IMG/VR virus record: IMGVR_UViG_2698536508_000009
Length of the DNA: 4,312 bases
Direction: 5' to 3' (one strand)
From: a virus
Lineage: Duplodnaviria > Heunggongvirae > Uroviricota > Caudoviricetes
Below, piece by piece: positions 1 to 4,312 of this stretch. The notes under the pieces were generated by a model that searched no databases, had not been told where the DNA came from, and saw only the letters and a list, made by a program, of their open reading frames with translations. A program made the position numbers and the translations under genes. Within the stretch, counting starts at the first letter, position 1. Every line of letters starts with the position of its first letter.

Positions 1-30
1 TCTGCGGGAAAGTCTTCGACGGCGAGCTGA
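1..30 (+). CDS. G: Tail assembly chaperone G, extreme C-terminal end (5' truncated by window start); zero frame ends at TGA 28-30
   Basis: Frame 1 reads SAGKSSTAS* and contains the GGGAAAG slippery heptamer as codons GGA AAG (7-12). Its position immediately upstream of the T frame and H matches lambda G/T organisation. Only 9 codons are visible, so the call rests on context. Confidence 0.6.
   Translation, partial: SAGKSSTAS
6..12 (+). promoter_or_regulatory. Programmed -1 ribosomal frameshift slippery heptamer G_GGA_AAG (G to G-T fusion)
   Basis: GGGAAAG is seen directly at 6-12. The zero frame stops 5 codons later (TGA 28-30), while the -1 frame stays open to 470 and encodes a T-like sequence. 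This matches the known lambda G/GT frameshift site, which uses the same heptamer. Confidence 0.8.
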
Positions 31-470
31 ATTTTGCCCTCAGACTGGCGCGAGAGATGGGGAGGCCTGACTGGCGCGCCATGCTTGCCGGGATGACATC
101 CACCGAATATGCCGACTGGCGACATTTTTACCGCACGCATTATTTTCAGGATACCCAACTGGATATGCATTTTTCCGGGCTGATGTACGCTGTACTCAGC
201 CTGTTTTTTTGCGATCCGGATATGCATCCCTCTGATTTCAGTCTGCTTGTCCCCCGGCATGAGGAAGAGCAGGTGGAGAGGCTGGATGAGGACAAAATGC
301 TGATGCAGAAAGCGGCAGGACTTGCCGGAGGCGTCCGGTTCGGTGGGGACGGAGGGGGCGATATTTTATCGTCTGCGGATGTGGCGGATGTCATGGTGGA
401 TGATGCCGCATTAATGATGGCTTCAGCGGGGATTCCGGGAGGTGTGAGATATGTCCCAGCCGGTTGGTGA
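6..470 (+). CDS. T: Tail assembly protein T frame, expressed as the C-terminal part of the G-T fusion by -1 frameshifting (no independent start required); stop TGA 468-470
   Basis: The -1 frame is open from the window start through 470 and reads CGKVFDGELNFALRLAREMGRPDWRAMLAGMTSTEYADWRHFYRTHYF...GGVRYVPAGW, which closely resembles lambda gpT as I recall it. The track ORF 57..470 is the same frame counted from its first ATG. Confidence 0.88.
   Translation, partial: GKVFDGELNFALRLAREMGRPDWRAMLAGMTSTEYADWRHFYRTHYFQDTQLDMHFSGLMYAVLSLFFCDPDMHPSDFSLLVPRHEEEQVERLDEDKMLMQKAAGLAGGVRFGGDGGGDILSSADVADVMVDDAALMMASAGIPGGVRYVPAGW
438..442 (+). promoter_or_regulatory. Shine-Dalgarno (GGAGG) for H
   Basis: GGGAGGTG lies at 437-444, 6-8 nt upstream of the ATG at 451. 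Confidence 0.6.
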
Positions 471-3030
471 TCTTATTATTGACCTGAGTCTGGATGCGGT
501 CCGTTTCGATGAGCAGATGAGCCGGGTAAGGCGTCATTTTTCAGGACTGGATACTGACGCCAGAAAAACCGCCACTGCTGTTGAACAGGGCCTGAGCCGT
601 CAGGCGCTGGCTGCGCAAAAAGCCGGGATTTCCGTCGGACAGTATAAAGCGGCCATGCGCACCCTGCCCGCACAGTTTACGGATATCGCCACGCAGCTTG
701 CCGGTGGTCAGAATCCCTGGCTGATCCTGCTGCAACAGGGCGGTCAGGTGAAGGACTCCTTCGGCGGGATGATCCCCATGCTCAGGGGGCTTGCCGGTGC
801 GATCACCCTGCCGATGGTCGGGGTCACCTCGCTGGCGGTGGCGACAGGTGCGCTGGCGTACGCCTGGTACCAGGGGGATTCCACGCTTTCAGCGTTTAAT
901 AAAACCCTGGTTCTTTCCGGTAATCAGTCCGGACTGACTGCCGATCGTATGCTGACTCTCTCAAGAGCCGGGCAGGCAGCAGGGCTGACGTTTAACCAGG
1001 CGAGAGAGTCACTGGCAGCCCTGGTGAATGCCGGTGTGCGTGGTGGTGAACAGTTTGATGCCATCAACCAGAGTGTCGCGCGTTTTGCGTCTGCATCCGG
1101 TGTGGAGGTGGATAAAGTCGCTGAAGCCTTCGGGAAGCTGACCACTGACCCGACGTCGGGACTGATGGCGATGGCGCGCCAGTTCCGTAACGTGACGGCA
1201 GAGCAGATTGCGTATGTTGCACAGCTGCAGCGTTCCGGAGACGAGGCCGGGGCATTGCAGGCGGCGAACGATATCGCCACGAAAGGCTTTGATGAGCAGA
1301 CCCGTCGCCTGAAAGAAAACATGGGAACACTGGAGACCTGGGCGGATAAAACAGGGAAGGCATTCAAATCGATGTGGGATGCCATTCTGGATATCGGTCG
1401 TCCGGAATCCTCAGCGGATATGCTCGCCAGTGCGCAGAAGGCATTTGATGAGGCGGATAAAAAATGGCAGTGGTACCAGAGTCGGAGCCAGCGCCGCGGT
1501 AAAACCTCCTCTTTCCGGGCCAACCTTCAGGGCGCATGGAATGACCGGGAAAATGCCCGTCTGGGGCTGGCAGCGGCCACGCTGCAGTCGGATATGGAAA
1601 AAGCCGGTGAACTGGCCGCCAGGGACCGGGCCGAACGGGACGCATCACAGCTGAAGTATACCGGAGAGGCGCAGAAGGCGTATGAGCGTCTGCTGACGCC
1701 GCTGGAGAAATATACCGCCCGTCAGGAAGAACTGAATAAGGCCCTGAAAGACGGGAAAATCCTGCAGGCGGATTACAACACGCTGATGGCGGCGGCGAAA
1801 AAGGATTATGAATCGACGCTGAAAAAGCCGAAGTCGTCAGGAGTCAAAGTGTCAGCCGGTGAGCGTCAGGAAGACCAGGCGCATGCTGCCCTGCTGGCGC
1901 TTGAAACCGAGCTCCGGACGCTGGAAAAACACAGCGGTGCGAATGGGAAAATCAGCCAGCAGCGTCGCGATTTATGGAAAGCGGAAAATCAGTATGCGGT
2001 CCTGAAAGAGGCAGCCACGAAACGGCAGTTATCTGAGCAGGAAAAATCCCTGCTGACCCATGAGAAAGAGACGCTGGAGTACAAACGCCAGCTGGCTGAG
2101 CTGGGAGACAAAGTTGAACACCAGAAACGGCTGAATGAGCTGGCACAGCAGGCTGCGCGGTTTGAGCAGCAGCAGGGCGCGAAGCAGGCGGCAATCAGTG
2201 CCCAGGCGCGGGGCCTCACCGACCGTCAGGTGCAGCGGGAGTCGGAAGAGCAGCGCCTTCGTGACGTGTACGGTGATAATCCGGATGCGCTGGCGAAGGC
2301 CACATCTGCACTGAAGAACACCTGGTCTGCGGAGGAGCAGCTTCGTGGAAGCTGGATGGCCGGTCTGAAGTCCGGCTGGGGCGAGTGGGCAGAAAGTGCG
2401 ACGGACAGTTTTTCGCAGGTTAAAAGCGTGGCCACGCAGACCTTTGACGGTATTGCACAGAATATGGCAGCGATGCTGACCGGCAGCGAACAGAGCTGGC
2501 GTGGTTTCACCCGTTCTGTGCTCTCCATGCTGACAGAGATTTTTCTGAAGCAGGCCATGGTGGGGATTGTCGGGAGTATTGGCAGCGCCATGGGTGGTGC
2601 TTTCGGTGGTGGGGCGTCTGCCTCCACGGGGACGGCCATTCAGGCTGCGGCGGCGAACTTCCATTTCGCGACCGGAGGATTTACGGGAACCGGTGGCAAA
2701 TACGAACCTGCCGGTATTGTCCACCGCGGGGAGTTTGTCTTCACGAAGGAGGCAACCAGCCGGATTGGCGTCGGCAACCTGTATCGTCTGATGCGCGGGT
2801 ATGCGGAAGGTGGTTATGTGGGCGGTGCCGGAAGTCCGGCGCAGATGCGGCGGGCGGAAGGCATTAGTTTTAATCAGAACAATCACGTGGTGATTCAGAA
2901 CGACGGCACCAACGGACAGGCGGGGCCGCAGCTGATGAAGGCGGTGTATGACATGGCCCGCAAGGGGGCGCAGGATGAGATTCAGGCGCAGATGCGTGAT
3001 GGCGGCGTCTTTTCCGGAGGCAGGCGATGA
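451..3030 (+). CDS. H: Tail tape measure protein (lambda gpH family), 859 aa
   Basis: A long 859-aa ORF starting MSQPVGDLIIDLSLDAVRFDEQM, which closely matches the lambda gpH N-terminus (MAEPVGDLVVDLSLD...) from memory. It has an Ala/Gln/Lys/Glu/Arg-rich central region and a Gly-rich hydrophobic C-terminal segment (MVGIVGSIGSAMGGAFGGGASASTGTAIQAAAANFHFATGGFTGTGG). It sits between T and M as in lambda. Confidence 0.97.
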   Translation: MSQPVGDLIIDLSLDAVRFDEQMSRVRRHFSGLDTDARKTATAVEQGLSRQALAAQKAGISVGQYKAAMRTLPAQFTDIATQLAGGQNPWLILLQQGGQVKDSFGGMIPMLRGLAGAITLPMVGVTSLAVATGALAYAWYQGDSTLSAFNKTLVLSGNQSGLTADRMLTLSRAGQAAGLTFNQARESLAALVNAGVRGGEQFDAINQSVARFASASGVEVDKVAEAFGKLTTDPTSGLMAMARQFRNVTAEQIAYVAQLQRSGDEAGALQAANDIATKGFDEQTRRLKENMGTLETWADKTGKAFKSMWDAILDIGRPESSADMLASAQKAFDEADKKWQWYQSRSQRRGKTSSFRANLQGAWNDRENARLGLAAATLQSDMEKAGELAARDRAERDASQLKYTGEAQKAYERLLTPLEKYTARQEELNKALKDGKILQADYNTLMAAAKKDYESTLKKPKSSGVKVSAGERQEDQAHAALLALETELRTLEKHSGANGKISQQRRDLWKAENQYAVLKEAATKRQLSEQEKSLLTHEKETLEYKRQLAELGDKVEHQKRLNELAQQAARFEQQQGAKQAAISAQARGLTDRQVQRESEEQRLRDVYGDNPDALAKATSALKNTWSAEEQLRGSWMAGLKSGWGEWAESATDSFSQVKSVATQTFDGIAQNMAAMLTGSEQSWRGFTRSVLSMLTEIFLKQAMVGIVGSIGSAMGGAFGGGASASTGTAIQAAAANFHFATGGFTGTGGKYEPAGIVHRGEFVFTKEATSRIGVGNLYRLMRGYAEGGYVGGAGSPAQMRRAEGISFNQNNHVVIQNDGTNGQAGPQLMKAVYDMARKGAQDEIQAQMRDGGVFSGGRR
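3016..3020 (+). promoter_or_regulatory. Shine-Dalgarno (GGAGG) for M, embedded in the 3' end of H
   Basis: GGAGG at 3016-3020 is 6 nt upstream of the ATG at 3027. Confidence 0.6.
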
Positions 3031-3356
3031 AAACATTTCGCTGGAAAGTGAAGCCGGATATGGAGGTGAACTCGCAGCCATCGGTGCGTGAAGTGCGTTT
3101 TGGTGACGGGTATTCGCAGCGTATGGCGGCGGGGCTGAATGCTGACCTGAAAACATACCGTGTGACGCTTTCCGTGACCCGGGAGGAGGCCCGACATCTG
3201 GAGGCATTCCTGGCAGAGCACGGTGGCTGGAAGGCGTTTCTGTGGACACCGCCTTATGCCTGGCGGCAGATAAAGGTGACCTGTGCCGCCTGGTCATCAC
3301 GGGTTCGCATGCTGCGGGTTGAATTCAGCGCGGAGTTTAAGCAGGTGGTGAACTGA
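3027..3356 (+). CDS. M: Minor tail protein M (lambda gpM family), 109 aa
   Basis: The 109-aa ORF MKTFRWKVKPDMEVNSQPSVREVRFGDGYSQRMAAGLNADLKTY... has the same length as lambda gpM and a closely similar sequence as recalled. Its start overlaps the H stop (ATGA at 3027-3030) and its stop overlaps the L start (ATGA at 3354-3358 region). Confidence 0.95.
   Translation: MKTFRWKVKPDMEVNSQPSVREVRFGDGYSQRMAAGLNADLKTYRVTLSVTREEARHLEAFLAEHGGWKAFLWTPPYAWRQIKVTCAAWSSRVRMLRVEFSAEFKQVVN
3343..3348 (+). promoter_or_regulatory. Shine-Dalgarno-like AGGTGG for L
   Basis: AGGTGG at 3343-3348 is 7 nt upstream of the ATG at 3356. Confidence 0.5.
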
Positions 3357-4001
3357 TGCAGGATATTCACGAAGAAAGTCTGAACGAGTCGGTTAAATCA
3401 GAGCAGTCACCGCGGGTGGTACTCTGGGAAATCGACCTGACGGTACAGGGTGGTGAGCGGTATTTTTTCTGCAATGAGCTGAATGAAAAAGGGGAGGCGG
3501 TTACCTGGCAGGGGCGGCAATATCAGGCATACCNNNNNNNNNNNNNNNNNNNNNNNNNNNNNNNNNNNNNNNNNNNNNNNNNNNNNNNNNNNNNNNNNNN
3601 NNNNNNNNNNNNNNNNNNNNNGGGTGTATGCGCGTTTTCTGGATGCGGTGAATTTCGTTGCGGGCAATCCGGAGGCGGACCCGGAGCAGGAGCTGAGTGA
3701 CCGCTGGGTGGTGGAGCAGATGTCGCAGCTGACAGCCATGACGGCCTCGTTTGTGCTGGCTACACCGACCGAGACGGATGGGGCGCTGTTTCCCGGTCGC
3801 ATCATGCTGGCGAACACCTGTATGTGGGATTACCGGGGAGATGAATGCGGGTATAACGGTCCTGCGGTGGCGGATGAGTTCGATAAACCCACCACCGATA
3901 TCCGTAAGGACAGATGCAGCAAGTGCATGCGCGGGTGTGAGATGCGCGGCATGGTGGCTAATTTTGGCGGTTTCCTTTCCATTAACAAACTTTCGCAGTA
4001 A
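3356..4001 (+). CDS. L: Tail tip protein L (lambda gpL family), interrupted by an assembly gap; visible length is 646 nt, so the true gene is probably longer
   Basis: The N-terminal part MQDIHEESLNESVKSEQSPRVVLWEIDLTVQGGERYFFCNELNEKGEAVTWQGRQYQAY (3356-3532) and the C-terminal part VYARFLDAVNFVAGNPEADPEQ...CSKCMRGCEMRGMVANFGGFLSINKLSQ* (3624-4001) both match lambda gpL as recalled. The two parts are in different frames only because the N run (88 nt) is not a multiple of 3. Stop is TAA 3999-4001. Confidence 0.93.
3534..3621. other. Assembly or scaffold gap (run of 88 N) inside gene L
   Basis: Unbroken run of n characters seen directly in the sequence. Confidence 0.99.
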
Positions 4002-4006
4002 ATCCA

Positions 4007-4312
4007 ATGACACAGACAGAATCAGCGATTCTGGCGCATGCCCGGCGGTGTGTGCCTGCGGAGTCGTGCGGCTTCGTGGTGAGAACGCCGGAGGGGGAGC
4101 GGTATATCCCTTGTGTGAATATCTCTGCAGAGCCGGAGGCGTATTTTCGTATTGCACCGGAAGACTGGCTGCGGGCAGAGATGCCGGGGGAGATTGTGGC
4201 ACTGGTCCACAGTCATCCCGGTGGGCTGCCCTGGCTGAGCGAGGCTGACCGGCTGCTGCAGGTAAACAGTGCACTGTCCTGGTGGCTGGTCTGCCGGGGG
4301 GAAATTCATACA
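4007..4312 (+). CDS. K: Tail protein K (lambda gpK family), N-terminal 102 codons; 3' truncated by window end
   Basis: From the ATG at 4007 the ORF reads MTQTESAILAHARRCVPAESCGFVVRTPEGERYIPCVNISAEPEAYFRIAPEDWLRAEMPGEIVALVHSHPGGLPWLSEADRLLQVNSALSWWLVCRGEIHT, closely matching the lambda gpK N-terminus as recalled. It contains an H-S-H-x7-S-x2-D motif and runs open to the window edge. Confidence 0.93.
   Translation, partial: MTQTESAILAHARRCVPAESCGFVVRTPEGERYIPCVNISAEPEAYFRIAPEDWLRAEMPGEIVALVHSHPGGLPWLSEADRLLQVNSALSWWLVCRGEIHT

Follow-up and report, generated by a model that had tools for sequence, protein, structure and literature searches.

The window analysed here, the whole 4,312-nt stretch of DNA, contains part of a lambda-like tail gene module in which one gene, L, appears to be frameshifted. 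This raises the question of whether the break belongs to the phage or to the record. There is a sole N run within the window; it occupies positions 3534-3621, is exactly 88 N long and is bounded by determined bases on either side. A first-pass annotation had placed this run inside L and had noted that the flanking L segments are in different frames. Both observations were confirmed: the two flanks of the run match the same Pfam family, Phage_tail_L (PF05100), and the pieces of L on either side of the gap are out of frame with each other (3356 mod 3 = 2 versus 3624 mod 3 = 0). The N run thus falls inside a homologue of the lambda tail tip gene L. Chance statistics do not apply here, since an N run is no chance event.

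The tail tip of phage lambda has gpL as its trimeric hub protein. The 59 codons from 3356 matched PF05100 profile positions 3-31 (E = 3.4e-9, 36.7 bits) and the 125 codons from 3624 matched positions 81-206 (E = 1.9e-52, 178 bits). Both scores are above the Pfam gathering cutoff of 25 bits for this family, and the closed L of a relative gave 306.5 bits. About 49 profile positions (32-80) are absent between the two fragments. The gene lies between M and K, downstream of the tape measure gene H, a position on which the Pfam assignments and the annotations of lambda and O26 agree. Lambda gpL (NP_040597.1, 232 aa; PF05100) has the same place in the G/T-H-M-L-K module and the same overlap with M. 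The identification of the gene as L is therefore upheld by the Pfam matches, the H-M-L-K order and 77% protein identity to the 232-aa lambda gpL. More generally, lambda gpL and the L proteins of closed relatives are both 232 aa long, share 75-77% protein identity and conserve the [4Fe-4S] cysteines. The 3' fragment in the window encodes C173, C182, C205 and C212, plus C208, at the same positions as in lambda gpL, and the first four are the [4Fe-4S] cluster cysteines of the gpL C-terminal domain (PMC10721106). The window gene is a typical gpL family member. Compared with lambda gpL, however, the record is without 48 residues, P60-R107, of the N-terminal HDI beta-sandwich domain, and its two halves are out of frame. 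The features of the window are collected in the table.

Table. Features of the 4,312-nt window in order of position
Feature	Position	Strand	Description
G 3' end and T frame	57-470	+	PF06223
H, tape measure, 859 aa	451..3030	+	PF06791 and PF09718; identical protein in many E. coli assemblies
M, distal tail protein, 109 aa	3027..3356	+	PF05939 full length; annotation of relatives
L 5' fragment	3356..3533	+	Codons 1-59 and first base of codon 60 (Pro); PF05100
Spurious 114-aa ORF	3356..3700	+	Begins at the true L start and leaves the L frame across the Ns; stop 3698-3700
Spurious 172-aa ORF (MKKGRRL...)	3483..4001	+	From the ORF list; out-of-frame ATG joined to the true 3' L frame
88-N run	3534..3621	none	Gap placeholder for 141 nt of L; 53 nt short
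L 3' fragment	3622..4001	+	Last two bases of codon 107 (Arg), codons 108-232, stop TAA 3999-4001
K 5' part, JAB/NlpC-P60 peptidase	4007..4312	+	PF14464; runs off the window end; C40 family peptidase in relatives

The content of the gap was sought in closed genomes. Megablast with window positions 3027-4312 matched approximately 4,400 E. coli records, and the best matches were to EHEC strains of the O26/O111 type, at 99.7% identity. In each top match, 1284 query bases corresponded to 1337 record bases, an excess of 53 nt. The same excess was found with the whole window, for which 4310 query nt corresponded to 4363 nt in all of the best 15 complete genomes (15/15). In O26:H11 strain 11368 (locus L001), window positions 1-3533 aligned with one mismatch and positions 3622-4001 with zero, and 141 nt lay between the two blocks. 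This stretch, which is opposite the 88 N, reads CGATTGACGG...GTCCGCCGCC. Four further loci (L004, L009, L011 and L012) had zero mismatches over both blocks; each contains the same 141 nt as strain 11368 and an L that is called as 232 aa.

The L gene of strain 11368 (WP_001375577.1; NC_013361.1, 1907085-1907783) is 100% identical in nucleotide sequence to the visible L of the window, and its closed sequence translates to 232 aa. The lengths add up: 178 + 141 + 377 = 696 nt, that is 232 codons. The hidden stretch encodes P60-R107, codons 60 and 107 being cut by the gap edges. Identical copies of L occur in other genomes of the O26/O111/O103 type; these genomes are closed, and 141 nt take the place of the 88 N. 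Since the difference of 53 nt (141 - 88) is not a multiple of three, L appears frameshifted in the record. The 48 missing residues are a property of the record and not of the protein. The first-pass annotation had proposed that roughly 50 nt more than shown are missing and that the real gap is about 140 nt. Measured against the flank-identical genomes, which have 141 nt, 53 more than the 88 N, this estimate was essentially exact.

We also analysed the length of the hidden stretch in more distant sequences. Of 40 E. coli records sampled across identities between 100% and 92%, 38 aligned with the gap and 100 nt on either side over exactly 341 nt. The other two were a weaker match that covered only query positions 16-341 (H90) and a frameshifted copy (H60). 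Lambda also has 141 nt between the corresponding anchors. Within the window, comparison of the 555 determined bases of L with intact homologues that are 100% identical revealed no indels or stops, and thus no frame-disrupting change. The reading frame of L is broken in the record by the 88 N and is continuous in every relative that is 100% identical. The flanks of the run are collinear with the closed references, bases present in those references are missing, and the 88 N stand against 141 nt. These results support the view that the apparent frameshift in L is a mis-sized assembly gap and not biology.

The Ns could instead hide a genuine inactivating lesion, such as a stop or an indel in a run of five G residues, in which case the prophage would be decaying and its L a true pseudogene. 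Such a lesion has a precedent in the complete genome of O111:H8 strain 1074-2 (NZ_CP077538.1; L014), where NCBI annotates L (locus 523-1220) as a frameshifted pseudogene and where 1 nt is missing from the G5 run that the window hides (GGGGG>GGGG). This deletion may reflect either a true mutation or a homopolymer error of long-read sequencing. Moreover, many copies of the prophage are already defective by virtue of an IS66-family transposase in tail gene U. A change in length was, however, seen in only one of the 40 spread-sampled records, and L is intact, at 232 aa, in all four loci whose two flanks match the window exactly. The visible bases of L are free of lesions and 100% identical to intact genes, and the frame break is fully accounted for by the difference between 88 and 141. 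We therefore consider a pseudogene very unlikely. The integrity of the hidden bases is judged from the relatives, which predict an intact gene. There is a small chance, taken as a whole, that the Ns do not stand for the usual 141 nt and that the HDI domain of gpL has truly changed, for instance through a G5-run deletion or a divergent recombinant segment. If so, this copy of the prophage would have an L that is truly inactivated or altered.

The form of the N run bears on what kind of gap this is. Fixed placeholders conventionally have lengths such as 100 N, which 88 N does not fit, and the length of the run points to an estimate of distance from read pairs. The reading as a scaffold gap with estimated length rests on this form; the two flanks joined by 88 N had no match among genome contigs. 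The unusual length could also be taken to mean that the run is a length-preserving mask over 88 real bases, 88 not being a standard gap placeholder; L would then have a real deletion of 53 nt and a true frameshift. A few stretches of one sequence collection are indeed masked with N, but the window did not turn up in that collection. This reading requires an otherwise unseen 53-nt deletion that lies exactly beneath the Ns, whereas all relatives, from those with 100% identity to lambda itself, have 141 nt (140 nt in one). Such a deletion would be unprecedented, and we rejected the mask as scarcely credible.

A gap of estimated length could in principle also hide a large insertion in L, such as an IS element. 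Repeated IS copies commonly break short-read contigs, and a member of the IS66 family is present in U among the tail genes of relatives. With a simple insertion, however, the flanks should abut in L coordinates, or overlap where a target site had been duplicated; here, they are separated by 141 missing nt of L. Furthermore, the value of 88, if it is a read-pair estimate, is incompatible with an element of at least 1 kb, and none of the sampled relatives has an insertion in L. An IS insertion is highly improbable and was rejected because 141 nt of L are absent between flanks that do not abut.

Why should an assembly break within L? The window sequence is repeated within the genomes of its likely hosts. 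Related EHEC genomes each have 8-13 places that match it. Exact repeats of 4492 and 5402 bp that extend across the window are shared by two different prophages within one genome, as seen in two complete genomes. The exact 859-aa tape measure protein was found in 2311 blocks of the sequence collection, and the longest contig carrying it was 2-5 kb in 1930 of the 2311. Contigs of 2-5 kb are of the size class of the 4312-nt window, which indicates that assemblies routinely collapse the repeated module into a short contig. Confusion between repeats likely caused the gap. We compared the positions at which paralogues vary with the gap edges at 3533 and 3622, and found them scattered in and around the hidden stretch with no clean alignment to the edges. 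Because the paralogue differences do not match the edges cleanly, the repeat tangle is a mechanism that we infer. Base composition was also considered as a cause: the hidden 141 nt have 66.7% GC versus 58.3% for the window. This excess is modest and would be at most a contributing factor.

An independent draft genome, LDXG02000001.1 (GCA_001039135.2; L006), has a 352-N run inside L (locus 6040-6391). Two further runs, of 227 N (7286-7512) and 89 N (7698-7786), lie downstream in its K/I region. The N runs of this draft are an artefact of the same kind as that in the window, recurring in the same tail cluster. As in the window, the run in L has a non-round, approximate length and is located beside an identical tape measure gene. 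Unlike in the window, the edges and the length of the run are different, and the error in its length is a multiple of three, so that the frame is kept: the 352 N stand for approximately 355 nt, as the K of L004 starts 3 nt later.

Taken together, the N run is very probably a scaffolding gap of estimated length in a short-read draft, placed over an L gene of 699 nt, most likely intact, in a lambda-like EHEC prophage. The following sequence of events would explain the record. The tail module, being present in many near-identical copies, would have caused the assembly graph to tangle inside L. The short unresolved piece would have been dropped, and read pairs would have bridged the two contigs at an estimated distance. 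The 141 nt that encode P60-R107 would thereby have been left unassembled, with 88 N entered in their place. The mis-sized gap would then create the apparent frameshift, the false read-through ORF at 3356-3700 and the false start at 3483.

The program-made list of ORFs in the window contains both expected artefacts, the 114-aa read-through ORF and the 172-aa ORF. The false start was analysed in the closed sequence. The first-pass annotation had dismissed the start MKKGRRL at 3483, and this proved to be right: in the closed sequence, the equivalent ATG is followed by an ORF of only 25 codons, which ends in TGA. The 172-aa ORF exists because the wrong gap length links the ATG at 3483 to the 3' frame of L. 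It had also been anticipated that automated calling would split L, and this has in fact happened in the draft genome described above, in which the L with the N run was called as fragments of 44 aa and 69 aa. A gene caller run on the present record would similarly list a false protein of 172 aa and a tail gene that is broken or in pieces, and a count of pseudogenes might score the prophage as decaying, though L is almost certainly intact. The window illustrates that the lambda-like tail modules of EHEC genomes are systematic breakpoints of short-read assembly. The gap itself is an ordinary draft-assembly artefact; it holds no new biology and matters for annotation hygiene only.

The rest of the module is organized as in lambda: by their Pfam assignments, T, H, M, L and K follow in the lambda order. 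The stop codon of H overlaps the start codon of M (ATGA, 3027-3030) and the stop codon of M overlaps the start codon of L (TGATG, 3354-3358). These compact junctions, also seen in lambda, are probably translationally coupled. Close to the 5' end of the window, the heptamer GGGAAAG (6-12, in the register G GGA AAG) is located just 5' of the stop codon of G (28-30). Heptamer and context are those of the programmed -1 frameshift site of lambda G/GT (lambda 10109), and the -1 frame reads from the heptamer directly into the T homologue, to position 470. Since the site is the same as in lambda and the -1 frame enters T, the window has one real programmed frameshift, in G/T, beside the artefactual one in L.

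In many genomes with the identical tape measure gene (L004-L007, L009-L011 and L013), an IS66-family transposase is located in or next to U (locus 1-1010), upstream of the region equivalent to the window; with this insertion at U, that copy of the prophage is already defective. In a second copy in the same genome (L008 and L012), Z and U are intact.

At the other end of the window, K differs from that of all close relatives at five positions: 4185 (A>C), 4254 (G>T), 4262 (A>G), 4267 (A>C) and 4311 (A>C). The five differences (4185-4311) are the window's alone when compared with the closed O26/O111/O103-type genomes. This version of K was absent from 5,426 complete E. coli genomes, in which the best match was 97.9%, and a window-specific 42-mer from K had no match among viral, genome or metagenome contigs. 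All five changes are nonsynonymous and confined to the last 128 nt. They resemble the errors that low coverage produces where a contig ends, although a rare recombinant could also account for them.
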